Origin: Raphidiopsis brookii D9
Lineage (GTDB): Bacteria > Cyanobacteriota > Cyanobacteriia > Cyanobacteriales > Nostocaceae
DNA: 32,000 nucleotides
Assembly (NCBI GenBank): GCA_000175855.1
Contig: ACYB01000042.1
Location: forward strand, 1 to 32,000
Direction of reading: 5' to 3'
This document shows, piece after piece, positions 5,196-22,171 of this stretch. A program made the position numbers and the translations under genes. The notes beneath the pieces were generated by a model that was not told the DNA's origin, did not search any database, and worked only from the letters and a program-made list of their open reading frames with translations. Numbering within the stretch: the stretch's first letter is position 1; each line of letters starts with the position of its first letter.

Positions 5196-5594
5196 ATGCA
5201 AGTTCAGAATTTGAGTGATGTAGAAGAAATTAGGAAAGTGTTCGAGAGGGATTATGCAGATGCCATGAGACTGCGCAATCCTGAGGTTTATGGTCAAATG
5301 TATACCCAGGATGCTGTTTGGATGCCACCCAACGATACTAATCGTAGCGGGGTTGCTAATATTAAGATTGGATTTACTAACCAAATTGCTGATAAATATA
5401 TAGATCCCAAATTCACCGCCGAAGAAATCAAAATTATCGGTGATTTAGGATATGTAATTGGCTTTTCTATTGCTCAAGTTACCCCCGTAGCTGGTGGTGC
5501 AACTAAAACTGTTCGTTTTCATGCATTATGGATCATGAAAAAGGAAAATGGAAAGTGGAAAATTGATCGCCAAATTTGGAATAACAAACAGTAA
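5196..5594 (+). CDS. NTF2-like (SnoaL/DUF4440-type) small protein
   Basis: 132 aa. The length and the C-terminal pattern ...ALWIMKKENGKWKIDRQIWN are typical of DUF4440/SnoaL-like folds. Confidence 0.45.
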   Translation: MQVQNLSDVEEIRKVFERDYADAMRLRNPEVYGQMYTQDAVWMPPNDTNRSGVANIKIGFTNQIADKYIDPKFTAEEIKIIGDLGYVIGFSIAQVTPVAGGATKTVRFHALWIMKKENGKWKIDRQIWNNKQ

Positions 5595-5693
5595 TCTCAA
5601 TCTAATATCTTAGATCCTGGGATCTCAGATCCCAAAAGGTTTTTTCAGAATCCTTCCCAAGCAAACTCAATCTCAATTTTTTCGGGTAGATAT

Positions 5694-6731: not shown

Positions 6732-6749
6732 TTATGATCTCTCAAAATC

Positions 6750-6797
6750 ATGATGTCTAAAAACAATGGTGTCTAAAAACAATGGTGTCTAAAAATA
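6750..6797 (+). repeat. 3 x 16-bp tandem repeat spanning the start codon of the oxidase gene
   Basis: The units are 6750 ATGATGTCTAAAAACA, 6766 ATGGTGTCTAAAAACA and 6782 ATGGTGTCTAAAAATA. Each unit carries an ATG. Confidence 0.95.
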
Positions 6798-8668
6798 AGA
6801 AATCTGTCAATATTATCTCGACTTTTCTGACTTTTCTTCTAGCTATAGCTATCACCTTGTGTGGATTTGGAGAAACAATAGCATTAGCAGCGTGTGGACC
6901 AGAAAAAGAAATGGGCGCATGGGAGACCATACCTCTTCCACCACCATCCAATCGAATGCAGTCCGTTCACACTATCCTTCTCCCTAATGGCAAAGTGCTA
7001 ACTTTGAATGGAAGTAGCTTTCGTACTACTCTCACCAAAGATGAAAATGGTAACAACAAATTTATAGAAGGGGTAGATGTCACAGATGATAAGATAGTTG
7101 ACAATACTGGTTTGCTGGATCCGGTTAGCGGACAATTCAAACGCACTTCCACGCCACCTGCTATGCAATTTGGCGAAAGTAATGATTTATTTTGCTCAGG
7201 TCATGTACAATTAGCCAATGGTAATGTTCTATTTATTGGTGGTACTGGAAGGTATTATCCAGGGGGAGCATTTACAGGTTCCAGACAGGTGAATATTTAT
7301 GACTGGAAAACCGATACTTGGTCTGCTGTAGGGCAATTAAAACAAGGCAGATGGTATCCTAGTTTAATTCCCCTAGCAGATGGCAAGGTAGTAATTTTTT
7401 CTGGTCTGAAATTAGATGCTCCTAACCAGATTAATCCTAGTTTGGAAATCTACGATCCCAGTACCGGGAAAATCTCCTATGTGGATCTGACAAAAATCAA
7501 AAACAGTCCCTTCAATACCAAACTCAAAGATGTTAATAGCTACGATAGCATAGATCTTTATCCTAGAGTATTCCCCACCGCTGATGGTAGATTATTAATT
7601 ACTGGAGATGATGGTGGTATTGGTGGAGTTTTAGTCTCCCAGTCCAGCAAAAAAAAACCTAATTTAATGTCCATCAAAGACAATGGGGATAACAACTTCT
7701 CAGTTAGTTTTGAAGTAGGACCGGAAAAAGGCGAAACATCTAAAGCTTATGGCACTGCTTTACAGGTTCCTAACTCCGAAGATGTTCTACTATTAGGTGG
7801 AATTATTGGTACAAACGATATTAACTTTGGTCGAGGGGGAAAAACAGAAGGATTTCCTGCTGGTTCCAGAGTTGCGGATAGCCTACAACGCTGGGTATCC
7901 CCACAAAAGAGTGGAGAAAAGAATGGTAAATGGGAAATTGTAGATCACTTTCTCGACAAACCCAGAGCCAACCTGGAGGCGGTAATTCTCCCCACTAAGG
8001 AAATTCTAGTAGTTAATGGTGGTGAATATCCAGAGTATAAACCTGTCTATGAACCCTTGTTAATGACTCCTGATGATCAGGTTCCCGGGGGTTATACTAA
8101 GAAAAGTATGAACCCTGCTAAACTGCCTAGATTATATCATAATGGGGCAGTTTTATTACCCGATGCTCGTGTTTTAGTTACTGGTGGTAACGCTAATAGA
8201 GCTTCACTAGAGAAAGATGGAACTGTTCATGTGAATGTGGTGAAAGATCCAACGACATATTATAAGTTTCCTGAACTAAACAAGGAATTTAGTATCGAGG
8301 AGTACTATAAATCTCCCCAAAGTTATTTCTTAGTAGAAGGAGACAGTCAACCCTTCGTTCCCGCAGAAATTTGGCAGGCTGAAATCTTCAGTCCTCCCTA
8401 TTTATTTCAACCTGGGTTACGTCCAGAAATAGTTCAGGTTCCAACAACCCTAAACTATGGTAGAAAGGACGGTATTTTAGTGAAGAATGCTACTGAAAAA
8501 GGCTCTGTTGTCCTGGTGAAATTAGGAGCAGTTACCCATTCCTTTGATTATGGACAAAAGTTAGCGGAACTATCTAATGTGAATGTGCCTAACGTCATGG
8601 GGGATAAATCTTTGATTGTCTTCAAAACTCCCGAAAATGCTAATCTCTACCCCCAGGTTATTACATGA
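6782..8668 (+). CDS. Copper-radical oxidase (glyoxal/galactose-oxidase-like, Kelch + DUF1929), C-terminus frameshifted
   Basis: 628 aa. The active-site context matches the family: LFCSGH (crosslink Cys), GRWYPS (crosslink Tyr), PRLYHNGAVLLPDARVLVTGG (Tyr-His) and VTHSFDYGQK (His). It has an N-terminal signal or lipoprotein-like sequence (LAACG). The family-typical C-terminal strand PPGYYMMFYLNNLGKPSIAKMVKL is encoded in another frame at 8653-8748. Confidence 0.85.
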   Translation: MVSKNKKSVNIISTFLTFLLAIAITLCGFGETIALAACGPEKEMGAWETIPLPPPSNRMQSVHTILLPNGKVLTLNGSSFRTTLTKDENGNNKFIEGVDVTDDKIVDNTGLLDPVSGQFKRTSTPPAMQFGESNDLFCSGHVQLANGNVLFIGGTGRYYPGGAFTGSRQVNIYDWKTDTWSAVGQLKQGRWYPSLIPLADGKVVIFSGLKLDAPNQINPSLEIYDPSTGKISYVDLTKIKNSPFNTKLKDVNSYDSIDLYPRVFPTADGRLLITGDDGGIGGVLVSQSSKKKPNLMSIKDNGDNNFSVSFEVGPEKGETSKAYGTALQVPNSEDVLLLGGIIGTNDINFGRGGKTEGFPAGSRVADSLQRWVSPQKSGEKNGKWEIVDHFLDKPRANLEAVILPTKEILVVNGGEYPEYKPVYEPLLMTPDDQVPGGYTKKSMNPAKLPRLYHNGAVLLPDARVLVTGGNANRASLEKDGTVHVNVVKDPTTYYKFPELNKEFSIEEYYKSPQSYFLVEGDSQPFVPAEIWQAEIFSPPYLFQPGLRPEIVQVPTTLNYGRKDGILVKNATEKGSVVLVKLGAVTHSFDYGQKLAELSNVNVPNVMGDKSLIVFKTPENANLYPQVIT

Positions 8669-8821
8669 TGTTCTATCTGAATAATTTAGGTAAACCTTCC
8701 ATAGCCAAGATGGTCAAACTGGAGAAAACGGGGACTACTCCACAGTAACAACTAAAACATGAGGACACTGTCCTCATAAACAATAAATCAATCAACTGAC
8801 ATCAAAAATCAGCAAAAAATT

Positions 8822-10231
8822 ATGGCACTAACAGAAAAAGATTTGCAAGAATTACCGGAAGATGGCATAGACCCAGAAAACCCAGGGAAATATGAGGTTT
8901 TACTAAAGGAATTACAAGGTAACATTCTCAGGGGACACGGGCGCGATTATAGTGTACACTTGTTTTTGGAATTTAAACCCGATAAACTGGTTGAAGTTAA
9001 GCAATGGATTCAAACCTTTGCCCAAAAGTACTTAAAGTCGGCTAAGAAGCAGTCAGATGAGGCTGTAAATTATCGACAAAACAGTATCAAGGGCGGACTA
9101 TTCACCAACTTTTTCCTCTCTTGCAAGGGTTATGAATATCTGGAAATTGAACCATTTTTGATTCCCTCAGATAGTCCATTCCGTCAGGGAATGAAAAATG
9201 AAAATATTAGAGCTGTTTTGGGTGATCCAAAAGTTGACCAGTGGGAAAGTGGATTTCAACGACAAATTCACGCCTTAATCCTCATTGCAGATGATGACAT
9301 TATTGCTCTGCTTCAGGGTGTGAATCAAATGATGCAAAAACTACGTCTAGTCGCTGATATTGTCCACCGGGAAGATGGCTTTATTTTCAGAAATGAAGCA
9401 GGGCAAATTATAGAACACTTTGGCTTTGTCGATGGTTTGAGTCAACCACTGTTTTTAAAAAGGGATGTTGTCCGTTCCCGTATTCAGGACAGTGGTTTTA
9501 GTAAATGGGACTCTAGAGCTCCCCTTGATATCATTTTAACTAAAGATCCTAATGGCAAAACAGAGGATAGTTACGGTAGTTATTTAGTCTATCGAAAACT
9601 TGAACAAAACGTTAAAAAATTTCGTGGTGAGCAGGAGTCCCTAGCAAAAGCCTTAGAAATTAAAAAGGATCTAGCAGGGGCGTTAGTTGTAGGTCGTTTT
9701 TATGATGGCACTCCCGTCACTCTTACGGATATACCAACTTTTTTACACAATATTACCAACAACTTTAATTACGATGATGATCTTGCTGGTACCAAATGCC
9801 CATTTCATTCTCACGTTCGCAAAATGAATCCTCGTGGGGATACGGGAAACGTAGTATCTTCCTCTGGGTTTGACGAAGCTTTAGCAGTGGAAAGAAAACA
9901 TCGGATTGCCCGCAGGGGAGTGAGTTATGGAAGTAACGATCCCGCACACGACCCAGAAACGGATTCAGGATTATTATTTTTGTGTTTTCAGGCGGATATT
10001 GAAAACCAATTTAATTTCATGCAAACCCGATGGGCGAATGCGACAGGTTTTGTCCAAGCTAATGTTGGACCGGATCCGATCATTGGTCAACCCCAAGGAA
10101 CTCAAAAATGGGTAAAAAACTGGGGACTCTCCGACTCCAAACCGCTTAAGTTTGAACTATGCGTGACTATGAAGGGTGGGGAGTATTTTTTTGCTCCTAG
10201 TCTCAGTTTTCTCCAGAATATTACTGATTGA
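8822..10231 (+). CDS. DyP-type haem peroxidase
   Basis: 469 aa. It carries the GXXDG motif FGFVDGLSQP (distal Asp), the proximal His context CPFHSHVRKMNPR and the distal Arg context RIARRGVSYG. Its size matches the characterised Anabaena DyP (AnaPX). Confidence 0.85.
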   Translation: MALTEKDLQELPEDGIDPENPGKYEVLLKELQGNILRGHGRDYSVHLFLEFKPDKLVEVKQWIQTFAQKYLKSAKKQSDEAVNYRQNSIKGGLFTNFFLSCKGYEYLEIEPFLIPSDSPFRQGMKNENIRAVLGDPKVDQWESGFQRQIHALILIADDDIIALLQGVNQMMQKLRLVADIVHREDGFIFRNEAGQIIEHFGFVDGLSQPLFLKRDVVRSRIQDSGFSKWDSRAPLDIILTKDPNGKTEDSYGSYLVYRKLEQNVKKFRGEQESLAKALEIKKDLAGALVVGRFYDGTPVTLTDIPTFLHNITNNFNYDDDLAGTKCPFHSHVRKMNPRGDTGNVVSSSGFDEALAVERKHRIARRGVSYGSNDPAHDPETDSGLLFLCFQADIENQFNFMQTRWANATGFVQANVGPDPIIGQPQGTQKWVKNWGLSDSKPLKFELCVTMKGGEYFFAPSLSFLQNITD

Positions 10232-10458
10232 GACATTAACTTAGGGGTCAATTATAACCTTCAAATTAAAAATCATGGTCTTCAAAGTGAAAATTATGAA
10301 CACAATCATTAGTGGGTGGTGGGTGGGCAAGGAACGAAATATGTAGGTTATCGATAATCTACGTATAACAATCAAGCTGGTAAAGCTCTTAGTTAATAAC
10401 ACGAAAGTGTTATGTAATGGTTCCGTATATTCCATAGTACACTTTTTGCATTCTAATT

Positions 10459-12975
10459 ATGCGAAGATCAAAGTTCTCGATTTGGCTTACATCCTTTATT
10501 TTTGTGTTTGTGGCCCTGGGTTCAGTCTTTCTAGAACCTAGAGTAGTTTTAGCTGAAAATGCACCTTGTGCACCTGGAGCTTCCTCCTTGTGGGCAACCT
10601 CAGTCAAGGATTTTGTCGGTACTTCAGCCAGCAAAAAATCCAATGTCTATTTCACTGGTGCAGAAGGTATTTTGACAGAGGTGTTTTATCCCACTGTAGA
10701 TAACGTGCAAAATGTTGACTTACAGTTTTTAGTTACCGATGCCAAAAAAACCTGGGGTGACGAAGAACGCAAGCAGGACCATAAGGTTACCCAGGTTAAT
10801 AAACGCTCAATGGTGTGGGAAGTCATAACTACAGATAAAGACAAACGTTGGCAAATCACTAAGAGATTTTTTAGTGATCCCAATCGTCCTACTGTAATTG
10901 AACGAGTTACTTTCGCTACTCTTGAACCGGGAAAAACAGTCCAAGACTATAACCTCTACCTGCTGAATAATCCTTCTATCAACAATTCAGGTAGTGGGAG
11001 TCCTGCTAATGCTTGCAGTGGACCACAAGCAACAGGTGGAGACAACTCTCGCACCCTGTCATCCAATGGTCGAACTTTCCTAGCAGCTTCTGAGCCTAAT
11101 TCTACCTCTTCAGCTGTCACGACCTCACTACCTTGGAAGAAGATTGATGGCACCTTAATGGTATCTAATGGCTTTGTGGGTCAAAGCGATGGTTATACTG
11201 ACCTTTTTGTTGGAGCAGGTGACAAAACCATGAACTGGCATTATAACAATGCTGTTGGTGGTAACGTCGCTCAAATTGGCTGGGTAGATTTTGGCAATAC
11301 CACTGGTGCCAAGATTTCTTTTGATGTAGTCTTGGGATTCGGTAACAGTGAGCAAGCGGCTATAGATGTAGTAAATGCTACTCTAAATACTGATTTGGCT
11401 ACTGTAGAAAGTGATTATACCAAAGAATGGGTAGCCTATACGGATAAACTCAGTGATCAAAATGGATTAGCTGATGATCAGTATTACTTGGCAGCCATGA
11501 ATCTCAAGAGTATTCAAGATAAGACTAATGGTGCCATGGTAGCAGGTCCTGCAACACCTTGGGGGGAAACTAATACTGATAAAAATCAGGGTGGTTATCA
11601 TTTAGTTTGGCCCCGGGACTTGTTTAAATTTGCCAGTTCTTTGATTGCTGCTGGTGACACAGAGTCAGCTAATGAAGCTGTTGATTACTTTTTCAACATT
11701 CAGATGCAGACTAAAACCAGTGATGAGCCTTATTCCCGTCCTGGGCGCTTTCCCCAAAATAACTATGTGGATGGTAGAATATATTGGAATGGCACCCAGA
11801 TGGATCAAACTGGAATGCCCATCATCTTGGCTTGGAAACTTAACCGCACTGATTTGTGGCCCAAAATTAAGTTAGCAGCAGAATATTTAGCTAACTATGG
11901 ACCATACACCCAGCAAGAACGTTGGGAAGAAATGCGTGGTTACTCACCTTCCACCATTGCTGCAGAAATTGCTGGTTTAGTCTGTGCAGCTGACTTGGCT
12001 AAAAAATCCAATGATCCAGAAGCAGCTAAGTACTATCTCAAAAAAGCTGATGAGTGGCGTAATAACGTTGCCAATTGGACTTTTACAACCACTGGTTATC
12101 ACGGTAATAAGCAGTATTATGTACGGATTACTAGTGATAAAAATCCCAATGATGGTGTACGGTTAACCTATGGTAATGGTGGGGGAACCCATGATCAGCG
12201 CTATATCATCGATGGTGGATTTTTAGAGTTGGTACGTTTAGGGGTGATGAGCGCCAATGACTGGACAATTTTAGAAACCATTCCTGAATACGATGAAATT
12301 CTCAAGCAAACCATTACCAAAGATGGTGTAGAAGCTGAAGCTTGGTTCCGCTATAACTACGATGGTTATGGCGAATACAATGACGATCGCAATTTTGATA
12401 CTAGTGGTCGTGGTCGTTTGTGGCCAATTTTCACCGCTGAACGTGGTATTTATGAGATTGCCAAATCTGGTGCGGGATGTGCTGGTCAAAAATATCTCAA
12501 AGATCTGAAAGTCATGTCTTCAGAAGCAGGATTTATTCCTGAGCAAGTTTGGAATAACAGCACTACCATTACAGGTTGGGAAACAATTACCCCTGCATCT
12601 CATCTTCCTGGTACTTCTACACGCTCTATACGTCCTCTTAGCTGGGCTATGGGTGAGTATATTAACCTGATTGCAGCCGTTAAAGATGGTAAAAGTGATG
12701 CTCCGGATGTGGTTTGTCAACGTTATGCTTGTGATAAACCCCAAACTGATGTGACTTTCACAGCTAAAAATGCGACTACAAAACCAGGTGAGAATGTGTA
12801 TTTGGTTGGTAATAGTCCCTTACTAGGCAATTGGGAACCCACTTCCGGTGTTAAGCTTTCTCCTGTTAGTTATCCTACTTGGAGTGTTAAGGTTTCTTTA
12901 CCTGCGTCTACTAGCTTTGAGTACAAGTTTGTTAAACTTGATGCTAGTGGCAACAAAAATCTGGGAAGAAGCTGA
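10459..12975 (+). CDS. Secreted GH15 glucoamylase/glucodextranase with C-terminal CBM20 starch-binding domain (3' end frameshifted)
   Basis: 838 aa. The signal peptide is FVFVALGSVFLEPRVVLA. GH15 motifs are GGYHLVWPRDLF, QERWEEMRGYSPST and RLWPIFTAERG. The CBM20 region is VTFTAKNATTKPGENVYLVGNSPLLGNWEP...FEYKFVKL. The CBM20 ending (K)IWEEAEKHTLETPATGE... continues in another frame to 13033. Confidence 0.85.
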   Translation: MRRSKFSIWLTSFIFVFVALGSVFLEPRVVLAENAPCAPGASSLWATSVKDFVGTSASKKSNVYFTGAEGILTEVFYPTVDNVQNVDLQFLVTDAKKTWGDEERKQDHKVTQVNKRSMVWEVITTDKDKRWQITKRFFSDPNRPTVIERVTFATLEPGKTVQDYNLYLLNNPSINNSGSGSPANACSGPQATGGDNSRTLSSNGRTFLAASEPNSTSSAVTTSLPWKKIDGTLMVSNGFVGQSDGYTDLFVGAGDKTMNWHYNNAVGGNVAQIGWVDFGNTTGAKISFDVVLGFGNSEQAAIDVVNATLNTDLATVESDYTKEWVAYTDKLSDQNGLADDQYYLAAMNLKSIQDKTNGAMVAGPATPWGETNTDKNQGGYHLVWPRDLFKFASSLIAAGDTESANEAVDYFFNIQMQTKTSDEPYSRPGRFPQNNYVDGRIYWNGTQMDQTGMPIILAWKLNRTDLWPKIKLAAEYLANYGPYTQQERWEEMRGYSPSTIAAEIAGLVCAADLAKKSNDPEAAKYYLKKADEWRNNVANWTFTTTGYHGNKQYYVRITSDKNPNDGVRLTYGNGGGTHDQRYIIDGGFLELVRLGVMSANDWTILETIPEYDEILKQTITKDGVEAEAWFRYNYDGYGEYNDDRNFDTSGRGRLWPIFTAERGIYEIAKSGAGCAGQKYLKDLKVMSSEAGFIPEQVWNNSTTITGWETITPASHLPGTSTRSIRPLSWAMGEYINLIAAVKDGKSDAPDVVCQRYACDKPQTDVTFTAKNATTKPGENVYLVGNSPLLGNWEPTSGVKLSPVSYPTWSVKVSLPASTSFEYKFVKLDASGNKNLGRS

Positions 12976-13101
12976 AAAACACACTTTGGAAACTCCTGCA
13001 ACTGGAGAAGTTTCACAACTTAATACACTGTAATTTATCCTGATTTTTCACGACCCAAAAAACTAAAATTGAAGTCTTCTTTTTAGGGTCTTCTCTAAAT
13101 T

Positions 13102-13132
13102 CTTCCCACTTCTAGGGGTGGGAAGGTTTTTT
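13102..13132 (+). terminator. Rho-independent terminator downstream of the glucoamylase gene
   Basis: The stem CTTCCCAC (13102-13109) pairs with GTGGGAAG (13118-13125) across an 8-nt loop and is followed by GTTTTTT. Confidence 0.7.
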
Positions 13133-13289
13133 ACCGTTTTAAAAAAAAGGGAGTATAAATATCCTGAGAATGGGGATTGAGATAAGGATGTTGTAACTGG
13201 ATGTTTTGTAATGCAAACTGTTCAAAGATAGCACTTATGCGATCCTCTGGAGTATGATTACCCGCTAGCCAGGCTTCAATTAATCCATT
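13133..13289. repeat. 157-bp direct repeat, copy 1 (orphan copy of the 3' end of the HopA1-like gene)
   Basis: It is identical to 14048-14204 except for 2 substitutions (T/A at the T/A-run junction and A/G at 13242). It corresponds to the last ~50 codons plus stop and 7 nt of 3' flank of the gene at 14055-15152. Confidence 0.95.
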
Positions 13290-13432
13290 TCTTGTCTCTT
13301 CTGAATATCCTCTGTGGGTTTCGTAATTATCAATAAATTGTCTACCACAGTTTTTACAAATATAATTTTGTTTGCTTTTTTATGACCATTTTTATTAATC
13401 TTGCTTGACTTACATTCTGGACACTGAATCAT
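13290..13432 (-). pseudogene. IS1-family transposase (InsA-like zinc-ribbon) N-terminal remnant
   Basis: The minus strand from ATG 13432 reads MIQCPECKSSKINKNGHKK, and after a 1-nt frame slip reads KQNYICKNCGRQFIDNYETHRGYSEETRN. This is the CPxC...CxxC ribbon typical of cyanobacterial IS1 transposases. It is truncated at 13290, where it abuts repeat copy 1. Confidence 0.65.
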
Positions 13433-13493
13433 ATTTTTACCTTGATTACTCTATTTCTACCAGTGATCGCTTTTTCCTCTTATCATACCCTAA

Positions 13494-14036
13494 TTCAGCA
13501 ACGCCCGTTACTTTTTACGTAGGCGATCAGACCAAGTTGCTGATGGTGCAGGTCAATACCATATTGTTCCATCGATGGTTTTTCAGCCCACGGGTACTGA
13601 TCCCTTTGATCCGGATTCCTACAACCTAGAGAAGACTATCTTGAAAGAAGTAGCTGAAGAGCTATTTAATTATGAAGAAGGTGACTTTAATCCCTTATCC
13701 TACCCTGAAATCGCTGACCTAAAAACCCTATTAGACCAGGGTGGTGCAACCCTTAAGATTACAGGGATCGGGATGGATTTACTCTGTTTGCGACCTGAGT
13801 TTTTGACCTTACTGTATATTCAGGATTCAAGCTGGTTTGAACGTCATGGGGGATCTATATGTTTCTCTGAGCATGAGTATGATTACGATCCATCTAGCAG
13901 GAAAAGTTGGCGATCTATCCTTGATGGTGAACCTTTTCAATCAGAGGGAGAATTAGCACCACATCGTTGCGTAGCGACCGGGGCAATTAGTGCCCTCCTG
14001 GCTAGGCAATATTTATTACAACATCTTGTCGTCTAG
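13494..14036 (+). pseudogene. 5'-truncated ORF of unknown function
   Basis: The frame is open from 13494 with no start codon until M at 13575. The upstream in-frame residues (..GAGQYHIVPSMVFQPTG..) read like protein interior. The ORF starts where the IS1 remnant's outer end should lie. No family was recognised. Confidence 0.35.
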
Positions 14037-14047
14037 CTAGGTCCTAG

Positions 14048-14204
14048 ACCGTTTTTAAAAAAAGGGAGTATAAATATCCTGAGAATGGGGATTGAGATAA
14101 GGATGTTGTAACTGGATGTTTTGTAATGCAAACTGTTCAAAGATAGCACTTATGCGGTCCTCTGGAGTATGATTACCCGCTAGCCAGGCTTCAATTAATC
14201 CATT
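14048..14204. repeat. 157-bp direct repeat, copy 2 (native 3' end of the HopA1-like gene)
   Basis: See copy 1 at 13133-13289. Confidence 0.95.
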
Positions 14205-15152
14205 AGCAATAATTTGACAGCGGTGAGTACCGAAGCTCTCTTGGTCGCCAAATTTCTGCTCTGGTTCTTCAGCACAACCCAATCCAGGTGCTAGTATTTT
14301 AGTAAACATGGGAACCGGTTGCTGAAAGTATAATTCATTTTCTGCATAAATTTTTTGCAACACTGGCCAGACGGTCTGATGTTGACTTTTATTAAAATAG
14401 AGGACAGCTGAATCGTAACGTTGATAATCGCTGGGTTCATATAATGCTTTAAAAGAGAATGAAATATCAAGATCATTAAGATATTCCGTTACACTTTCCA
14501 TCACTGTTGGTGCTCCTTCAGCTGCTATATTAAAGTAAATGCGCGTAATCTCCAGGTTGTTTTGAGTTCCCGCATTAGCTACGGCCATATAAAAGCCATT
14601 TTGTACCAGATTTTTCGGCATTTTAACGGATATAGTCTTTCCAGCGCTGAGACTTTGAGTTGTTGGTGATAAATGTATATTGGGGTCAACATGCAGTGTT
14701 AATCCGTTCTTATAGACTGCTAAGGTACCGTCTGTCTCTTCCTTGACAATCTCCCAATTGGGACTCCAGTAACCTTTACCTTTGTTCCCATTGTGTAGAC
14801 GATCATAAAATTCTAGATCTACCCCAAATAAACTATTGTTTTCAAGCTGTTTATTTAATTTACTGCTGTTTACGTTCTCATCTGTACTTGATTTATTGTT
14901 TGTGTTAACGTTATAATAGTTGCTGTATATAAAGTTACGCAATTGAAATTTTAAATGTTGCTGCTGTATCTGTAAAGGTAGCTTTTGAAACTGAGAAATT
15001 ACAGAATCTGGCATGGTTGAATGTTTGTAGCGTGTATGTTTAATAGAGTAATAAGACTCAATTTGAATGTGACTAACCATATCCTGTAGAGAATCTTGCA
15101 ACTGCTCAGGAAGTTGTGTCAACTGAAATTTGCGAGAATTTAATAATTGCAT
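14055..15152 (-). CDS. HopA1-family-like protein, putative phospho-Ser/Thr lyase partner of the adjacent kinase
   Basis: 365 aa from ATG 15152, which is preceded by AGGTGA 9 nt upstream. The ORF track extends it to a TTG at 15245, overlapping the kinase. The blocks YWSPNWEIVKEETDGTLAVYKNGLTLHV, ITRIYFNIAAEGAP, YQRYDSAVLYFNK, MFTKILAPGLGCAEEP and FGTHRC match my recollection of cyanobacterial proteins annotated as T3SS effector HopA1 family, which usually sit beside a phosphotransferase. No HMM was run. Confidence 0.55.
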   Translation of the reverse strand: MQLLNSRKFQLTQLPEQLQDSLQDMVSHIQIESYYSIKHTRYKHSTMPDSVISQFQKLPLQIQQQHLKFQLRNFIYSNYYNVNTNNKSSTDENVNSSKLNKQLENNSLFGVDLEFYDRLHNGNKGKGYWSPNWEIVKEETDGTLAVYKNGLTLHVDPNIHLSPTTQSLSAGKTISVKMPKNLVQNGFYMAVANAGTQNNLEITRIYFNIAAEGAPTVMESVTEYLNDLDISFSFKALYEPSDYQRYDSAVLYFNKSQHQTVWPVLQKIYAENELYFQQPVPMFTKILAPGLGCAEEPEQKFGDQESFGTHRCQIIANGLIEAWLAGNHTPEDRISAIFEQFALQNIQLQHPYLNPHSQDIYTPFF

Positions 15153-15213
15153 AGTTTTGTCACCTATAGATAAAAACAACAAAGTCCCCTTTACTGACCT
15201 TTTAGCAAAACTC

Positions 15214-16380
15214 TTAATTAGATCTAAAATTAATGTCCTCCCCAAAAATTGTGCCGAGGGATGCTTGAGGACGACACAACAGAGTTTTGGCTAACTGAAG
15301 AATAGCAATGCCAGAATTACCAAAAGTCTTTTCGTGTTGCAGTTTAGCTTGGATGGACGTAATTAATGAAAAGCCAGTAAACTGTACAACTAATTGCAAA
15401 AAATTAGGTCGACGTTCTAAAATCTCCGGAAAGCTATTTAAATAACCACCTACTAATTCTGCTATGGAGGGTTGTATTAAGTGCAAAGGAATAGCTGCTA
15501 ATCGTAGAGATTCTTCGATTGCTATGGTTCGACTGGTTACCATACTATATAGCCAAATTTGTAAATAACTAGCAATTATGGAACCTAAATCACTTGCTGG
15601 GTCTCCCCAATTACCACGTTCCCAATCAATGAGGCGAATTATTTTTCCCCCTCCATTATTACCGGATGATTGATTTATTGTAGATTCCCAATTTAAAGAC
15701 AGGAGAATATTATTGAGTTTCAGGTCATTATGGGTTAAACAACAAGCATGATAAGATTGACCCAATTGGGAAATTGCTTTGCCTAAATTGTCATAACGCT
15801 GATACAAGGAAAAGAATTTTAAACCATCTGCAGTCAGATGACCAAATAGTTCTGGTGTAATTCTAGGTATTCCCTCATGTAAGTGAGAATTTTTATTTTT
15901 TCTGGTGACCTCAGGATTTTGGAAGAAATTTTCATATTCTGGACTATCTAAAGTCAACCGATGAATTGATGCTAATATTTCCCCTAGGGAGCGAGCAATT
16001 GTCATGGGAAATAAATTTTCTCGAGCATAAAACTCACCTATATCCCGATATTCTCTGAGATAGTTGAAGACAAGTATGGAATTGGCTTGATCAAAATGTA
16101 TTGCTTCTGATAGAGATGAACGGAGATGATTTACTGCTGAAAATGTCTGAAAAAAATTATGAACTTGCCATTCATCTATAAACTCACCACTGGTTTTACC
16201 CTCTCGATTAATACGTTCTTGTTTCACCAATAATTGACGGTTATCAGGCAAAGTAAGTAATAGATTAAAATTTTTAGCGGATTTGAGATCAATCTTGCTG
16301 GCTGATTGCTCTTCTTGAGTGCAAATTTTTTGAGAAATCAGGTAAGGAAAAACGTTTTCAGAACTTAAAACAAATGGCAT
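15214..16380 (-). CDS. Aminoglycoside-phosphotransferase-like (protein-kinase-fold) kinase
   Basis: 388 aa. It has the catalytic loop CCLTHNDLKLNNILL (HxDxxxxN), the metal-binding LIDWERGNWGDPASDLG (IDWE, the APH/choline-kinase equivalent of DFG) and the candidate ATP-binding Lys in LLVKQE. It starts 17 nt after the stop of the upstream peptide gene. Confidence 0.75.
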   Translation of the reverse strand: MPFVLSSENVFPYLISQKICTQEEQSASKIDLKSAKNFNLLLTLPDNRQLLVKQERINREGKTSGEFIDEWQVHNFFQTFSAVNHLRSSLSEAIHFDQANSILVFNYLREYRDIGEFYARENLFPMTIARSLGEILASIHRLTLDSPEYENFFQNPEVTRKNKNSHLHEGIPRITPELFGHLTADGLKFFSLYQRYDNLGKAISQLGQSYHACCLTHNDLKLNNILLSLNWESTINQSSGNNGGGKIIRLIDWERGNWGDPASDLGSIIASYLQIWLYSMVTSRTIAIEESLRLAAIPLHLIQPSIAELVGGYLNSFPEILERRPNFLQLVVQFTGFSLITSIQAKLQHEKTFGNSGIAILQLAKTLLCRPQASLGTIFGEDINFRSN

Positions 16381-16397
16381 GACTTTCAGATGATATG

Positions 16398-16607
16398 TTA
16401 TTCTCGAAAAGAATATGCTAGAAAAGAAATGGCATTAATAGCTGTAATAACAACCATAAACTCAAGGGTTTTGATGCCAAAATTGAACAGTCCATCAAAA
16501 TAAGGATTTTCACCACCAAAAACAGCCTGAGAATTATGATTATTCAGATCATTAATGAATGTTTCCGAGTTAATAGGCGCCAGATCATTAATAATAATCT
16601 TAGCCAT
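16398..16607 (-). CDS. Double-glycine-leader peptide D (divergent, hydrophobic core)
   Basis: 69 aa: MAKIIINDLAPINSETFINDLNNHNSQAVFGG|ENPYFDGLFNFGIKTLEFMVVITAINAISFLAYSFRE. The core tail ISFLAYSF aligns with IAYLAKSY of peptides A-C. The gene is tightly coupled to the kinase gene. Confidence 0.55.
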   Translation of the reverse strand: MAKIIINDLAPINSETFINDLNNHNSQAVFGGENPYFDGLFNFGIKTLEFMVVITAINAISFLAYSFRE

Positions 16608-16704
16608 TGATATTAATAGTTAAAGTTTTCCTAGAGCTTTTTTGATTGGCTCTCCTGGAATCAAATTCAACAGGAAAGCCAAACTAGCTAATTATTCCAG
16701 TGCA

Positions 16705-16938
16705 TTAGTAGTTGTAGTCACTGTAAGACTTAGCTAAATAAGCAATATTACCAATACCATAGGTATTGACAAATGCTTCTGCTAATTTGGTGAATACGGA
16801 CATATCACTGAAATCATAATATCCACCACCATGGACAGAAATAGAATTGATATCACTCATTTCATTCAGAAAACTTTCCGAATCTTGAAACAGTTCAGAA
16901 CCATTGGCTTGCAATTGATCCAGTTTGATACTTGCCAT
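16705..16938 (-). CDS. Double-glycine-leader precursor peptide A
   Basis: 77 aa: MASIKLDQLQANGSELFQDSESFLNEMSDINSISVHGG|GYYDFSDMSVFTKLAEAFVNTYGIGNIAYLAKSYSDYNY. It has a strong SD, GGAGGAAATTATG, and is one of 3 tandem paralogues. Confidence 0.75.
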   Translation of the reverse strand: MASIKLDQLQANGSELFQDSESFLNEMSDINSISVHGGGYYDFSDMSVFTKLAEAFVNTYGIGNIAYLAKSYSDYNY

Positions 16939-17015
16939 AATTTCCTCCCCAAGGATTTGTTATTGACTTACTACGAGTGAACCAGAAGTGACCAATAAAT
17001 GATCTGGTAATTTTC

Positions 17016-17252
17016 TTACCAATAATAATCATGATCACTATAAGATTTTGCTAAATAAGCAATATTACCAATACCGTAAGTATTGACAAATGCTTCTCCT
17101 AATTTGGTGAATACGGATATATCACCGAAATCAGATCCACCACCATAAACAGAGATAGAATTGACATCGCTCATTTCATTGAGAAAACTTTCGGAATCTT
17201 GGAATAATTCAGAACCAGTGGTTTCCAGTTGACCAAGCTTAATACTTGCCAT
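17016..17252 (-). CDS. Double-glycine-leader precursor peptide B
   Basis: 78 aa: MASIKLGQLETTGSELFQDSESFLNEMSDVNSISVYGG|GSDFGDISVFTKLGEAFVNTYGIGNIAYLAKSYSDHDYYW. It has the same SD, GGAGGAAATTATG. Confidence 0.75.
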   Translation of the reverse strand: MASIKLGQLETTGSELFQDSESFLNEMSDVNSISVYGGGSDFGDISVFTKLGEAFVNTYGIGNIAYLAKSYSDHDYYW

Positions 17253-17315
17253 AATTTCCTCCTCAAAGACTGATTGCTAGTGATAGACATTGCCAAAATC
17301 AACAGTGTTTTAGTT

Positions 17316-17546
17316 TTATACTCCACTGCTATAAGACTTAGCCAAATAGGCAATATGAGCAATACCGTAGGCATTGACAAATGCTTCTGCTAGTTTGGTG
17401 AATATGGACATGTCACTTACAGTGGAGTTGAATCCACCATGGATAGAAATAGAGTTGATATCGCTCATATCATTGAGAAAACTTTCGGAATCTTGGAACA
17501 GTTCAGAACCAGTACTTTGCAATTGATCCAATTTGATACTTGCCAT
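17316..17546 (-). CDS. Double-glycine-leader precursor peptide C
   Basis: 76 aa: MASIKLDQLQSTGSELFQDSESFLNDMSDINSISIHGG|FNSTVSDMSIFTKLAEAFVNAYGIAHIAYLAKSYSSGV. It has the same SD, GGAGGAAATTATG. Confidence 0.75.
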   Translation of the reverse strand: MASIKLDQLQSTGSELFQDSESFLNDMSDINSISIHGGFNSTVSDMSIFTKLAEAFVNAYGIAHIAYLAKSYSSGV

Positions 17547-17579
17547 AATTTCCTCCTAGAAAACTTGTTCTTACTGGTG

Positions 17580-17607
17580 AATATGGGAGCATTTGAGATT
17601 TGCTCAA
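17580..17607 (-). promoter_or_regulatory. Candidate sigma70-type promoter for the precursor/kinase/lyase genes
   Basis: On the minus strand, TTGAGC (17607-17602) is followed by a 16-nt spacer and CATATT (17585-17580), about 35 nt upstream of the peptide C start. This rests on sequence pattern only. Confidence 0.25.
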
Positions 17608-17668
17608 CCGATACTCCTATTTTTATGGGAGAAAATTTAAAAAATCAAGGGTTTGAACTGTGTTGATT

Positions 17669-17700
17669 GGACATTACTCATGATTTAATGTCCTTTTATA
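17669..17700 (+). terminator. Plus-strand intrinsic-terminator-like hairpin antisense to the peptide operon
   Basis: GGACATTA (17669-17676) pairs with TAATGTCC (17686-17693) across a 9-nt loop and is followed by TTTTATA. The T-run is on the plus strand only. Confidence 0.35.
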
Positions 17701-17852
17701 TCGCTGGTTCCATATCAATCTCTGATTAGATTAGCGATAATTTCTCGAATGATGATCAATCTGTTTTTAAAAACAGCTACCTGATATATAATAATAAATC
17801 CCCCTTCAGCAAGGGAGGAATAATAAGAATTAGTAAAAACTTAACTCAAAGG

Positions 17853-18089
17853 TTAGAAGGTGACTGAATCTCTCAATTCATCTAGGGTGTCATCAATCTC
17901 GGCTCTCCATCTTTCTAGGTTGTCGTTGACACGTCCTAAAACTTGGGAAATATCAACACTCTCGACCGAATTAGGATTTCTCCTTCTTCGTCTTACACCT
18001 CCTTTGATATTAACCATTTCGCCAGGAGTAACTTCTTGCAAAAGGTCGCCATCACCATTGGGGTATAGATCACTGATTTTTATGTCCAT
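17853..18089 (-). CDS. Double-glycine-leader peptide E (poly-Arg, highly charged core)
   Basis: 78 aa: MDIKISDLYPNGDGDLLQEVTPGEMVNIKGG|VRRRRRNPNSVESVDISQVLGRVNDNLERWRAEIDDTLDELRDSVTF. It has a canonical GG-type leader (L..E....E...I.GG) and the SD GAGGTG 8 nt upstream. Confidence 0.6.
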   Translation of the reverse strand: MDIKISDLYPNGDGDLLQEVTPGEMVNIKGGVRRRRRNPNSVESVDISQVLGRVNDNLERWRAEIDDTLDELRDSVTF

Positions 18090-18304: not shown

Positions 18305-19822
18305 TCAGTTGATTTTTGATCCTGTGTCTTGAGATCCGGGAATGGTGATATCTATCGGTGTAATTTTACCTGCTAACTGGGTTAATGGTGGTTGAATGGC
18401 ACCTTGATTTCCCACAACTAACGTAACTAAATTCTCTGGTTTGAGATATTTTTGAGCCACTCTTTGCACATCTGTAGCTGTGGTTTTTGTGACCGCTTTT
18501 TGATAACGAAACAGAAAGTCAGCAGGATAACCATAATATTCATAACGCATTAACCGTGACAGGGTTTGACCTGGGTCCTGAAAATTGAATACAAAAGAAT
18601 TTAGGGTGGACTCCTTAGCATACCTTAATTCTTTCGCTGTTATTGGTTGTTTTTGAATGCGCTCAATCTCTAATTGAATAGACTTTATAAACTGTACTGT
18701 AGCATCGGAACGGGTTTGTCCACCAGCAATAAACATACCCGGATAATCAAAACGGGGATTCCATGAGCCATATACAGAGTAGGCTAAACCTTGGCGCGAT
18801 CGCACTTCATTAAATAGTCTTCCTCCGAACCCATTTAGCACGCCATTCATTACATCTAATGCTGCATAATCTGGACTATTGAATTTTCCGCCCAAATGTC
18901 CCATTAAAATGCTGCTCTGTGTCAGTTGTGGTTGATTGACAAAGAATAACCCACTTAAATTAGCCTGCTGCACTGGTGGTAATTGGGTTTTAGCAATATT
19001 GAGATTAGGTTGCCAATCACCCAGTTTAGTCTGAATCAGAGAGCGCATTTTTTTCGGGTTAAAATCCCCCACAATTCCCAGGATTATGTTATTGGGATGG
19101 AAATATTTCCGATAGAAGTTAATCACATCTTCTCGCTGGATTTTATCGAGAGTTGCATATTCTGTAGTGCGTGCATAGGGACTATTTTGACCATAGATTA
19201 ATTTGCGAAACTCCCGACTGGCAATATTGTCAGAGTCATCATTGCGACGGGTAATACTTCCCTTAATTTGAGTTTTAATCAATTCCAACTTTTCCGGAGC
19301 AAAAGCTGGTTCTCGTAAGACTTCTGTAAACAACCCGAACACAGTTTCTAAATCTTCAGTTAAACTTTCAAAACTGGCAGTTCCAGCACTTTCACTAATG
19401 TCAGTTTCTACGGATGCTGCTCTTTGTTCCAAAATTTCATTTAGTTGATCCGGGGAATGTTTGGCAGTCCCCCCAATGCGCATCAGTGAACCTACAATGT
19501 CACCTAAACCGACTTTATCTCCTGCTTCCCAACGACTACCAGTCTTAATTAGGGTTGTTCCACTAACTAGGGGTAATTCATGATCTTCCATTAAATAGAC
19601 GACTAAACCGTTGTTTAATTGGAATCGCTCATACTTTGGCAGTTTAATTCCCGGTAAAGAATTGAATTGTAAGTCGGTATAATGCTTGGCTGCTGCTGTT
19701 GCTACCCTGGAGAAATTCAAGGTCAATACTAAGGCAATTACTAAGGCAAAAAATAATTGCCAAGTTTTACCCAATTTGGGGAAAATATTGCGTGAAAATT
19801 TCAATTTTTTACTCCTGACCAT
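18305..19822 (-). CDS. M16-family peptidase, non-catalytic-type subunit (zinc motif lost), signal peptide
   Basis: 505 aa with an M16 two-domain architecture. At the position of HxxEH it reads GLGDIVGSLMRIGGT. The N-terminal signal is FALVIALVLTLNFSRVATAAA. Confidence 0.8.
   Translation of the reverse strand: MVRSKKLKFSRNIFPKLGKTWQLFFALVIALVLTLNFSRVATAAAKHYTDLQFNSLPGIKLPKYERFQLNNGLVVYLMEDHELPLVSGTTLIKTGSRWEAGDKVGLGDIVGSLMRIGGTAKHSPDQLNEILEQRAASVETDISESAGTASFESLTEDLETVFGLFTEVLREPAFAPEKLELIKTQIKGSITRRNDDSDNIASREFRKLIYGQNSPYARTTEYATLDKIQREDVINFYRKYFHPNNIILGIVGDFNPKKMRSLIQTKLGDWQPNLNIAKTQLPPVQQANLSGLFFVNQPQLTQSSILMGHLGGKFNSPDYAALDVMNGVLNGFGGRLFNEVRSRQGLAYSVYGSWNPRFDYPGMFIAGGQTRSDATVQFIKSIQLEIERIQKQPITAKELRYAKESTLNSFVFNFQDPGQTLSRLMRYEYYGYPADFLFRYQKAVTKTTATDVQRVAQKYLKPENLVTLVVGNQGAIQPPLTQLAGKITPIDITIPGSQDTGSKIN
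18796..18803. repeat. HIP1 palindrome GCGATCGC (one of 11 copies in the window)
   Basis: Exact GCGATCGC starts at 1800, 18796, 20132, 21296, 22040, 24352, 24723, 25515, 27381, 29631 and 30497. This is the hallmark highly iterated palindrome of many cyanobacteria. Confidence 0.9.
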
Positions 19823-19845
19823 GGTTCTGTTTTCGTCCTCTATAC

Positions 19846-21393
19846 CTATGATTTTTGAGAAAGTAATTTACCAATCGTGCGATTTTCCGCTGTGAAGGTT
19901 GATTGTGCTACCCTTTGAATATCCGCAGGGGTAACCTTTGTAATGTCATCCAATTGCTTAAATAAATTCTGCCAAGAACCTGTTTTCACCTCATATTCCA
20001 ATAGTTGCTGTGCCATACCCATGTTGGAATCTAAACTCCTCAGTAAACCTGCTCTAGCTTGTGTTTTAACTCGCTCTAATTCTTTCTCAGATACGAACTG
20101 GGTTTGCAATTTACTAATTTCCTGACCTAGGGCGATCGCCAATTCATCTACTGTATGGCCTGGTGCTGTCAGGGCATAAAATAACATTAAATTGGGATAC
20201 TTGTCCCCTGGAAAACCACTAATCCCCTCAGCCACCAAAGCCACTCTTTGGGTTTCAATCAAGGATTTATACAGTCGTGAAGTCCTACCATCACTTAGTA
20301 AACTGCTAATAATATCGTAAACAGCATTATCGGGATCAGTTATACTGGGACGATGATAGCCCTCTAAGTACCAAGGTTGGGAGGGTAGTTTTACGGTAAT
20401 TTCTCTGGTGCTGGTTTGTTTAGGTTCGGGGGCAATTTTAGCTTGTGCTTTCGGTTTAGCTGGATATCTACCAAAATAAATTTTGGCCAATCTTTTAACC
20501 TGATTAGGGTTAACATCACCCACCACCGCAATAGTTAAATTACTGGGAACATAATACTTGTTAAAAAACTCCCTCACATTAGCTGGAGAAAGGTTACGAA
20601 TATCTTCATCATAACCAATAACAGGTCTCCGGTAAGGGTGAACTTTAAAAGCAACATCGGTGAATTTTTCAACCATTAACCCTACGGGAGAATTTTCTAC
20701 CCGCATTCGTCTTTCTTCCAAAATCACATCCCTTTCTTTATAAAATTCTCGGAATACTGGTTCTAAAAATCTTTCTGATTCCAGAGACATCCACAACTCC
20801 AATTTATTAGCAGGAAAACTATAAAAGTAACGGGTTGCTTCACTAGAAGTGTTAGCATTTAAACCCACACCTCCAGCTTGTTCAACTATTTGACCTATTT
20901 CATTTTGTTTCACCAATTTCCCAGCTTGAGCTTCTACAGCTTTAAACTCTTTTTGTAGCTTTTCTAGTTCTTCCGTTCTATTTTCACTCTTGGCAGATCT
21001 AATTTGATTGTCTAATTGCTCTAACTTGTCTAATAAAGGCTTCTCCACTGTGTAGTTTGTTGTACCAATGCGCTTGGTTCCCTTAAAAGCTAAGTGTTCT
21101 AAAAAATGAGCTATTCCTGTTTGTCCATCTGGTTCATCTATCCCCCCAACATTTGCATAAGTCAGAAAAGAAACCACGGGTGCTTGATGTCTTTCCAAAA
21201 CAATAAACTTTAGACCGTTATCTAAAGTAAACTCTGTTAGTTGCTTAACAACGCGGTCTAAATAGGGCTTAATCGAAGTTTGATTACCCTGCAGGGCGAT
21301 CGCTGTTTGAATGGGAAAATTACCACAAAATAAGAAAAATGCTAGGGTTATTACTAGAAAACGGCTCGTAGAAGTCAAAATCCAATGGCTCAT
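19846..21393 (-). CDS. M16-family zinc peptidase (pitrilysin/insulinase-like), catalytic-type subunit, signal peptide
   Basis: 515 aa. It has an intact inverted zincin motif, GIAHFLEHLAFKGT (HxxEH), plus the downstream NANTSSEATRYFYSF block. It lies 23 nt upstream of the second M16 gene. Confidence 0.85.
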   Translation of the reverse strand: MSHWILTSTSRFLVITLAFFLFCGNFPIQTAIALQGNQTSIKPYLDRVVKQLTEFTLDNGLKFIVLERHQAPVVSFLTYANVGGIDEPDGQTGIAHFLEHLAFKGTKRIGTTNYTVEKPLLDKLEQLDNQIRSAKSENRTEELEKLQKEFKAVEAQAGKLVKQNEIGQIVEQAGGVGLNANTSSEATRYFYSFPANKLELWMSLESERFLEPVFREFYKERDVILEERRMRVENSPVGLMVEKFTDVAFKVHPYRRPVIGYDEDIRNLSPANVREFFNKYYVPSNLTIAVVGDVNPNQVKRLAKIYFGRYPAKPKAQAKIAPEPKQTSTREITVKLPSQPWYLEGYHRPSITDPDNAVYDIISSLLSDGRTSRLYKSLIETQRVALVAEGISGFPGDKYPNLMLFYALTAPGHTVDELAIALGQEISKLQTQFVSEKELERVKTQARAGLLRSLDSNMGMAQQLLEYEVKTGSWQNLFKQLDDITKVTPADIQRVAQSTFTAENRTIGKLLSQKS

Positions 21394-21544: not shown

Positions 21545-22171
21545 ATGCCAGTTTCTCATTATTCCTCTCCTTCAGAAGCTCAAACCCGTAGCCGCATTCT
21601 TATAGCAGCACTGCGTTTATTTGCTTCCGGGGGATTTGATGGCACTACCACCCGTGACTTGGCCCACGCTGCAGGAGTTGCTGAGGGTACACTCTTTCGT
21701 CATTTTGCCAATAAAAAGGCAATTCTGGTAGAGGTAGCGACCAATGGTTGGGTAGAAATTCTCACGGACCTACTGACAGAATTGAGTGAAATGGGTAGTT
21801 ATAAAGCCATAGCCCAAGTTATGCGTCGCAGAATGTGGAACATGCAAAAGAATGTTGATTTGATGCGAGTTTGTTTCATGGAGGTGCAGTTTCATCCAGA
21901 TTTGCAGGATCGCATCCAAACTGAAGTGATTGATAAAATGACCAGTGTTACAGAAGCATTCTTCCAAACCGCTATGGATAGGGGTATTTATCGTCAAATG
22001 GATGCTAAATTGGTTGCTAAAGTGTTTTTAGGAATGTTTGCGATCGCAGGTTTTTCTCATCAAACCCTAATTGATCCCCATGGGTCTCCCCAGGAAATGC
22101 AACAAATGGCTGAGGGTTTAGCAGATATATTCTTAAATGGGGTTTTGGTTAAGGAATTCACAATTCAATAA
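21545..22171 (+). CDS. TetR/AcrR-family transcriptional regulator
   Basis: 208 aa. The N-terminal HTH is TRSRILIAALRLFASGGFDGTTTRDLAHAAGVAEGTLFRHFANKKAIL. It is divergent from the M16 pair. Confidence 0.85.
   Translation: MPVSHYSSPSEAQTRSRILIAALRLFASGGFDGTTTRDLAHAAGVAEGTLFRHFANKKAILVEVATNGWVEILTDLLTELSEMGSYKAIAQVMRRRMWNMQKNVDLMRVCFMEVQFHPDLQDRIQTEVIDKMTSVTEAFFQTAMDRGIYRQMDAKLVAKVFLGMFAIAGFSHQTLIDPHGSPQEMQQMAEGLADIFLNGVLVKEFTIQ

Follow-up and report, generated by a model that had tools for sequence, protein, structure and literature searches.

A putative LanK/LanY-type split dehydratase with five double-glycine-leader peptides of cysteine-free core in Raphidiopsis brookii D9, a member of a cluster type already catalogued in cyanobacteria

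We analyzed a stretch of 32,000 nucleotides (nt) from Raphidiopsis brookii D9 (contig ACYB01000042.1, positions 1 to 32,000; the whole stretch is called the window below), in which seven co-directional minus-strand genes fill positions 14055-18089. They encode five peptides with double-glycine (GG) leaders, a kinase and a HopA1-family protein (Table 1). Our comparisons support the reading of the last two as the subunits of a putative split Ser/Thr dehydratase of the LanK/LanY type. We consider it reasonably probable that leader-guided phosphorylation and elimination would yield lanthionine-free peptides bearing dehydroalanine (Dha) or dehydrobutyrine (Dhb), which would be cut after the GG site and exported by a transporter encoded elsewhere. 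The cluster is real, and it was correctly read in an initial annotation of this sequence. It is not a discovery, as its type was catalogued in 2011 and again in 2021.

The gene order given in the initial annotation (peptide E, then the tandem paralogues C, B and A, then peptide D, the kinase and the HopA1-like gene) was borne out on the minus strand, and the kinase gene does start 17 nt past the stop codon of peptide D. One boundary was revised. The HopA1-like open reading frame (ORF) had been listed as 14055-15245, with a TTG start and 396 amino acids (aa). Nearly all of the 120 homologues listed are 357-376 aa long and start at a position equivalent to the ATG at 15152 (the Met of MQLL), so that we take this ATG as the true start and 365 aa as the length of the protein. 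The paralogy of peptides A, B and C is visible by direct alignment alone, with a mean DNA column identity of 86% that includes a common GGAGGAAATTATG ribosome-binding site and start; Tandem Repeats Finder detected no arrays in the window. Ratios of nonsynonymous to synonymous substitution rates (dN/dS), calculated against the orthologues of Cylindrospermopsis raciborskii, came to 0.08-0.28 among the five peptide genes, and the lyase gene gave 0.19. The five peptide genes are therefore real coding genes under purifying selection.

The similarity to HopA1 proposed for the 365-aa protein (EFA71901.1 / WP_009343975.1) was found by profile search, with a match to Pfam HopA1 (PF17914) at E = 2.5e-67 across the full profile (positions 1-170). 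A profile of the lyase family retrieved LxmY (chain 9dk1_B, E = 1.6e-9), the sole solved relative found by sequence; entry 9DK1 is identified as the lexapeptide dehydratase complex LxmKY in a later paper (PMC12141560, citing Randall 2024). The structural comparison suggested in the initial annotation led to the same protein. An AlphaFold (AF2) model built on 55 homologues, with a predicted local distance difference test (pLDDT) score of 84, had LxmY as its best Foldseek match over the whole length (E = 3e-16, template modeling (TM) scores 0.67/0.77, identity about 18% in the structural alignment), followed by HopA1, class III LanKC lyase domains and SpvC. In CaoY, the homologous lyase of cacaoidin biosynthesis, mutagenesis has shown that R187 and K219 are required to eliminate the phosphate and that elimination is inefficient without R229, and Y236 aligns with a catalytic Tyr of SpvC (Liang 2022, PMC9486802). 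The corresponding residues in the window protein are R204, K235, R245 and Y252. They are invariant in 55 sequences, align with those of LxmY, and are spaced 31/10/17 as against 32/10/17 in CaoY.

These four residues also bear on a different outcome, in which the stable products would be phosphopeptides or partly dehydrated peptides and the lyase would be active at few sites or be chiefly a scaffold. Such an outcome could be favored by the fact that HopA1-type lyases have neither the His acid of OspF/SpvC nor an equivalent of their Lys104 (PMC9486802), and a non-catalytic role was left open for TsaD, the thioamitide homologue (Eyles, Vior, Lacret and Truman 2021, Chem Sci, PMC8153245). Against it stand the invariance of R204, K235, R245 and Y252 in 55 orthologues and the behavior of CaoY, which has the same residue set and carries out eight eliminations in vitro as part of the reconstituted CaoK/CaoY dehydratase (PMC9486802). 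We would give a phosphorylated or partly dehydrated end product only a small chance, and a lyase that completes the elimination is assumed in what follows.

The kinase matched Pfam APH (PF01636) above the cut-off (E = 4.2e-08) and contains both the HNDLKLNN and the IDWE motif, as had been claimed for an APH-fold kinase. Its best NCBIfam match is LxmK (E = 1.6e-21, residues 37-377). Across 84 orthologues, conservation reaches at least 97% at K53, E70, the loop H217-x-D219-x-K221-x-N223-N224 (HNDLKLNN) and D252 (IDWE); the kinase thus retains its catalytic Lys/Glu, its HxDxKxxN loop and its Mg-binding Asp. A single-sequence phmmer search gave LxmK at E = 0.066 only, and a single-sequence AlphaFold model made without an alignment was unusable (pLDDT 33.7).

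Kinase, lyase and GG-leader peptides were then followed across cyanobacterial genomes. When one genome per species was scanned, a relative of the lyase turned up in at least 457 genomes. The family is large, and it is the biggest HopA1/kinase cluster group reported. We compared 86 loci (80 fetched, five obtained earlier and the window), mostly from Nostocales, with additional representatives from Leptolyngbyaceae, Waterburya and Allocoleopsis. Kinase and lyase genes were adjacent in 85/85 fetched loci, as they are in the window. A hidden Markov model (HMM) of the leader identified 387 peptides, with at least one in every one of the 86 loci, and no kinase-lyase pair among them lacked nearby leader peptides; the co-occurrence that the initial annotation had proposed to test is thus general. 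All but a few of these peptides (376/387) are encoded on the strand of the pair, 98% of those upstream of the kinase, and in 70/86 loci no more than 300 nt separates the last peptide gene from the kinase. The locus is thus a real operon rather than a chance arrangement. This obligatory co-occurrence, together with cores that bear Ser/Thr and are poor in Cys, means that the enzymatic reading is well supported.

The leaders of all five window peptides end in GG, as claimed; that of peptide E is MDIKISDLYPNGDGDLLQEVTPGEMVNIKGG. Over the 387 peptides the leader consensus is MANITLSELH(AGSEL)FQDSESFLNELNDVDSISIYGG, with the C-terminal part …FLNELNDVDSISIYGG. Gly occupies position -2 in 361/387 and position -1 in 343/387. 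The leader fits the pattern of substrates of C39 exporters (peptidase-containing ATP-binding cassette transporters, PCAT), namely a GG site with Leu at -12, Asp/Glu at -8 and Ile/Val at -4. Its conserved N-terminal segment extends past what the exporter requires (consensus MANITLSEL…FQDSESFLNEL…I.GG).

Leaders of this kind raise the question of whether the peptides might be exported unmodified, in the manner of class II bacteriocins or signals, with the kinase-lyase pair acting on some other substrate such as a protein. Apart from the exporter-type GG consensus, a few leader peptides adjoin the transporter operon instead of the kinase, and HopA1 itself is a protein-targeting effector. It is difficult to reconcile this with the presence of the peptides in 86/86 loci at tight, co-directional spacing, or with the conserved N-terminal part of the leader that exceeds the needs of the exporter. 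Moreover, in a survey of 1,340 HopA1 proteins 96% adjoined a phosphotransferase, in contexts like those of RiPPs, peptides that are made by the ribosome and modified after translation (Eyles et al. 2021, PMC8153245). We therefore regard unmodified export as improbable, and treat the peptides below as substrates of the pair.

The window cores are 37-47 aa long (E, 47; C, 38; B, 40; A, 39; D, 37), with 4-8 Ser/Thr each, and none contains Cys, in agreement with the initial annotation. Family-wide, Cys occurs in 8/343 distinct cores and Ser/Thr in 343/343 (median 8), so the Cys-free character that was first described as unusual is a property of the whole family. The largest core family, which we term A-type, comprises 234 cores from 63 loci and includes window peptides A to D. 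The core of peptide A, which ends in LAKSYS, served as the reference for its alignment; peptide D has a shorter leader variant and a divergent core ending in …LAYSF, of the same family as A to C. A-type cores conserve K13 (95%), E16 (89%), K32 (83%), S33 (96%) and S35 (79%), in the pattern [L/I]-A-K32-S33-[F/Y]-S35, and the near-invariant Ser of K-S-[F/Y]-S (S33) is the leading candidate for a modified site. The core of peptide E differs from these in combining a poly-Arg head with a stretch of Ser/Thr and an amphipathic helix. Cores of this E-type occur once per locus in 41 loci, always as the first peptide (41/41) and only alongside A-type peptides.

The conserved Lys and Ser residues of the A-type cores admit a further possibility, that the dehydro residues are intermediates. 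They could be captured by a residue other than Cys (Lys13 or Lys32 with Dha33, giving lysinoalanine) or be reduced to D-Ala or D-aminobutyrate (D-Abu), spontaneously or by enzymes encoded elsewhere. Retention of K13, K32 and S33 at the frequencies given above would be expected in that case, and an aldo/keto reductase gene that follows the lyase in 16 related loci implies that the family recruits further tailoring enzymes. However, the window has neither a cross-linking nor a reductase gene, the cores of the reductase loci are not A-type, and the conserved Lys/Glu could be mere helix or target-binding residues. We consider conversion of this kind rather unlikely, and return below to Dha and Dhb as the end products.

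The 16 reductase loci (L036, L042, L048, L056, L057, L060, L061, L065, L067, L068, L072-L074, L077, L078 and L084) have the gene directly after the lyase and on the same strand. Their cores differ from those of the window in consisting of Asn-Ser/Asn-Thr repeats, e.g. …NSVGNSLLNTFGNSVNVSF, and they may represent a subfamily with extra chemistry. Action of the reductase on an N-terminal dehydro residue was considered and set aside, as the frequency of cores that begin with Ser/Thr (8/49, vs 29/294 elsewhere) was unconvincing.

We propose that the five precursors, once translated, would dock on a kinase-lyase heterodimer by means of the conserved N-terminal part of the leader. The APH-fold kinase would phosphorylate Ser/Thr residues of the core, and the HopA1-fold lyase would eliminate the phosphate to leave Dha or Dhb. 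Because the cores are without Cys and a cyclase is lacking, lanthionine is not an expected product, and the peptides would remain lanthionine-free. In the last step a C39 ATP-binding cassette (ABC) exporter with a cyclic-nucleotide (cNMP)-binding domain, acting with HlyD and a SurA-like protein from what would be a separate locus in this lineage, would cut after the GG site and export the products.

Several observations weigh against this scheme. The kinase scored 76.8 bits against an LxmK equivalog cut-off of 315, so far under it that the protein is to be regarded as a distant LxmK relative and not an orthologue. A profile of 15 kinase sequences searched against the PDB retrieved generic APH and 4-hydroxytryptamine kinases, and LxmK was not among the proteins retrieved. 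Apart from the one Ser in A-type cores, Ser/Thr positions are poorly conserved. Reactive Dha or Dhb in a long linear peptide would be unusual as an end state, and further chemistry may follow. No exporter for GG cleavage is encoded in the window; the intact operon found is that of the sister species C. raciborskii. Finally, no product is reported for any member of the family in the literature that we searched, in which coverage of subscription journals is incomplete; as far as that literature goes, the earlier statement that the combination is not characterised in cyanobacteria holds.

Among the window ORFs scanned (most of those of at least 100 aa), there was no LanC, second APH protein (LanX), YcaO, radical S-adenosylmethionine protein (rSAM), flavoprotein or ABC transporter, which bears out the earlier claim that cyclases of the LanC/LanX type, YcaO, rSAM and flavoprotein genes are lacking. 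A second APH protein and a flavoprotein were likewise not found among the recurrent genes of the 86 loci. Peptides with GG leaders normally depend on an ABC transporter with a C39 peptidase for cleavage and export, a need that was overlooked in the initial annotation. The window contains no such exporter, which is adjacent in 54 of the 74 related loci that have enough flanking sequence. There the exporter operon is convergent with the cluster and lies just past the lyase (Table 1). In C. raciborskii (CP073250.1; locus L086, 7267-13083) the genes for a helix-turn-helix (HTH) regulator, the cNMP-C39-ABC exporter, HlyD and the SurA-like rotamase are intact, far from the peptide-kinase-lyase operon and with no leader peptides nearby. 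The cluster thus appears to have been split from its exporter in the Cylindrospermopsis/Raphidiopsis lineage.

Table 1. Features of the peptide cluster and its surroundings in the window, and genes of the exporter operon in related loci (counts refer to the 74 loci with enough flanking sequence)
Feature	Position	Strand	Evidence or count
InsA-like zinc-ribbon fragment	13280-13432	-	weak Pfam match; between repeat copies
166-nt duplicate of lyase 3' end	13124..13289, copy of 14039-14204	-	direct repeat, 96% identity; alignment
153-aa ORF, truncated copy of a 372-374-aa protein	13575-14036	+	between repeat copies; = EFA71900.1
Predicted HopA1-family phosphoSer/phosphoThr lyase, LanY-like subunit, 365 aa	14055..15152	-	PF17914, LxmY fold match
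Predicted APH-fold Ser/Thr kinase, LanK-like subunit, 388 aa	15214..16380	-	PF01636, LxmK model, motifs
Precursor peptide D, 69 aa	16398..16607	-	ORF; leader HMM match
Precursor peptide A, 77 aa	16705..16938	-	ORF; paralogue alignment with B, C
Precursor peptide B, 78 aa	17016..17252	-	ORF; GGAGGAAATTATG ribosome-binding site and start; dN/dS 0.08
Precursor peptide C, 76 aa	17316..17546	-	ORF; GGAGGAAATTATG ribosome-binding site and start; dN/dS 0.14
Terminator-like hairpin and T-rich run	17800..17817	-	directly 3' of peptide E; consensus match alone
Precursor peptide E, 78 aa	17853..18089	-	ORF; leader HMM match; dN/dS 0.26
Two M16 peptidase genes, directly upstream of cluster	18305..21393	-	Pfam
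TetR-family regulator, divergent from M16 pair	21545..22171	+	Pfam
PPIC-type rotamase (SurA-like)	exporter operon, related loci		60/74
HlyD	exporter operon, related loci		53/74
Exporter of about 1016 aa: cNMP-binding, C39, ABC membrane and ATPase domains	related loci		54/74
HTH regulator	exporter operon, related loci		49/74

About 27 loci, among them those of C. raciborskii and a Leptolyngbyaceae genome, have a HetP-like gene about 55-310 nt 3' of the lyase, and in about 14 loci a second HetP-like copy stands at the head of the exporter operon. When positions 13000-14054 were compared with 11243-11500 of related locus L001, no match to the HetP-like gene was found in the window, which has lost the gene present at this position in its relatives. 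R. brookii D9 is not known to make heterocysts. In the 166-nt duplicate listed in Table 1, ~150 nt from the 3' end of the lyase gene are repeated together with the stop codon, and about 750 bp of unrelated sequence separates the two copies. The duplicate marks a rearrangement that replaced the HetP-like gene. The full-length counterpart (372-374 aa) of the truncated ORF at 13575-14036 is intact in C. raciborskii CENA303.

Taken together, these features might indicate that the cluster in D9 is a decaying remnant, cut from its exporter and HetP-like gene by rearrangement. The duplication of the lyase 3' end, the truncated ORF and the InsA-like fragment between the repeat copies, the loss of the HetP-like gene and the lack of an exporter in the window are all what decay might leave behind. 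Yet the seven genes are all intact, and the dN/dS values of the peptide genes are 0.08-0.28. The same detached layout is also seen in many Cylindrospermopsis and Raphidiopsis genomes, and the sister genome has an intact exporter operon at another site. We find decay very improbable, and the cluster is discussed here as a functional one.

The gap between peptides E and C measures 306 nt and includes the hairpin at 17800-17817. The hairpin may act as an attenuator that sets peptide E at an expression level other than that of the rest of the operon. Such sites are no commoner in the region than in shuffled sequence, so the hairpin is weak evidence; promoter and terminator scans of the region were at or near the shuffle level in general. 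An Rfam scan of the window returned no RNA families.

Of the two M16 genes directly upstream of the cluster, that at 19846-21393 has the HFLEH motif of the active type and that at 18305-19822 is without HxxEH; both products have hydrophobic N-termini. Of the 58 loci with enough flank, 38 have the M16 pair upstream of the cluster and 32 have TetR, always together with M16. M16 proteins were noted in group II clusters of an earlier survey, where a trimming role was suggested (Wang 2011, PMC3140520). We considered the pair as a dedicated leader protease and set this aside. The M16 genes form a more conserved syntenic block (identity 70-83%, vs 50-65% for kinase and lyase), which in Dolichospermum stands alone (PhzF-DUF4332-TetR-M16-M16), the 10 kb around it being free of leader peptides, and which is missing from the three fetched loci assigned outside Nostocales. 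In Sphaerospermopsis the block lies about 15 kb away, in an arrangement unlike that of the window. The M16 pair is best described as a conserved neighbor, at most an accessory protease, and not an obligate part of the system.

In the left part of the window, positions 60-1006 carry an IS630-family transposase in two overlapping ORFs (HTH part 60-458, DDE_3 part 365-1006). A C-terminal piece of a GMC oxidoreductase stands isolated after it, at 1016-1363, and the element looks like an insertion into that gene. The plus-strand genes at 1464-12975, unrelated to the peptide cluster, have oxidative and carbohydrate functions. They encode a ferritin-like protein, a pentapeptide-repeat protein, two xylose-isomerase-like TIM barrels, a DUF4440/SnoaL-like protein, a galactose-oxidase-like Kelch protein, a DyP-type peroxidase and an 838-aa glucodextranase (GH15) with a starch-binding domain.

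What role the products might play can be addressed with little confidence. One Arg-rich E-type peptide accompanied by several hydrophobic A-type peptides could conceivably form a modified-peptide signal or a cell-surface system of filamentous cyanobacteria, and not an antibiotic, with the Ser of K-S-[F/Y]-S converted to Dha and possibly captured by Lys. We make this suggestion, which we think doubtful, because the set lacks Cys and is retained in hundreds of species, most of them Nostocales, because it is paired with an exporter that has a cyclic-nucleotide domain, and because it often lies beside HetP-like genes, a family linked to heterocyst formation (Wang 2011, PMC3140520). If true, Dha captured by Lys would be a type of cross-link not known for a kinase-lyase pair. 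Apart from any such role, the family is a fair natural-product target, as it asks what a lanthipeptide-type dehydratase makes without cysteine for rings. The present analysis adds the constant order of one E-type peptide followed by several A-type peptides, the near-invariant Ser as a candidate modification site, the apparent cluster-exporter split in the Cylindrospermopsis/Raphidiopsis lineage and the loss of the HetP-like gene in the window.

Among characterized systems, the nearest are the class V LanK/LanY dehydratases, LxmKY of lexapeptide (PDB 9DK1) and CaoK/CaoY of cacaoidin. Like these, the window encodes an adjacent APH-fold kinase and HopA1-fold lyase, and the lyase fold and catalytic Arg/Lys/Arg/Tyr are kept. 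Unlike them, it has no LanX cyclase, LanD decarboxylase or LanJ reductase, the substrates are without Cys, and the leader is of the GG type rather than the actinobacterial type. Judged by its sequence, the locus would act like a class V lanthipeptide dehydratase, yet it falls outside class V with respect to Cys, cyclase and decarboxylase. A kinase and HopA1 pair is also found in the thioamitide (TsaC/TsaD, TvaC/TvaD) and kintamdin (KinD/KinC) pathways, where Dha or Dhb is formed in RiPPs that are not classical lanthipeptides. Those pathways differ in including YcaO/TfuA thioamidation and rings of the aminovinylcysteine (AviCys) or bis-thioether type, with substrates that need Cys; none of this is encoded in the window. 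With unmodified GG bacteriocins exported by C39 transporters the cluster shares the geometry of the leader and, in related loci, a dedicated C39 exporter with HlyD. It is distinguished from them by the modification enzyme pair that is always attached and by the extra conserved N-terminal segment of the leader.

Within cyanobacteria, the initial interpretation stands as regards a split dehydratase of the LanK/LanY type, GG leaders, Cys-free cores and products in which lanthionine is not expected; its description of the system as undescribed does not. The cluster type appears among the group II clusters of Wang, Fewer and Sivonen (2011, PLoS One, PMC3140520), which contain arrays of GG precursors, a long C39 exporter, HlyD, SurA, modification genes, M16 and HetP-like genes, although the kinase and lyase were not recognized as such at that time. 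In R. brookii D9 two clusters were counted, one of group I and one of group II (PMC3140520), a count that fits the split layout. Compared with group II, the window has the half with precursors, modification genes and the adjacent M16 pair; the C39 exporter, HlyD and SurA-like genes are not beside the precursors, and the window is without a HetP-like gene. Cyanobacterial "type-B" candidate substrates were also listed by Liang (2022, PMC9486802), with only Cys-containing ORFs kept.

The closest correspondence is to "Family 1A" of Eyles et al. (2021, PMC8153245), which is confined to cyanobacteria and comprises 570 double-glycine-leader peptides in 183 clusters with HopA1 and phosphotransferase genes. 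Each cluster encodes several precursors that are not identical to one another; their GG leader is conserved, and their cores vary, with no conserved Ser/Thr/Cys. The window cluster agrees with this description in its origin, its enzyme pair, its GG-leader precursors and its Cys-poor cores, and we found no structural difference from it. Dataset 2 of that paper lists window peptides B and C verbatim under WP_009343975, the exact window lyase. The paper is bioinformatic only and reports no product. Where it describes cores with no conserved Ser/Thr, the present comparison finds one near-invariant Ser inside the dominant A-type subfamily.

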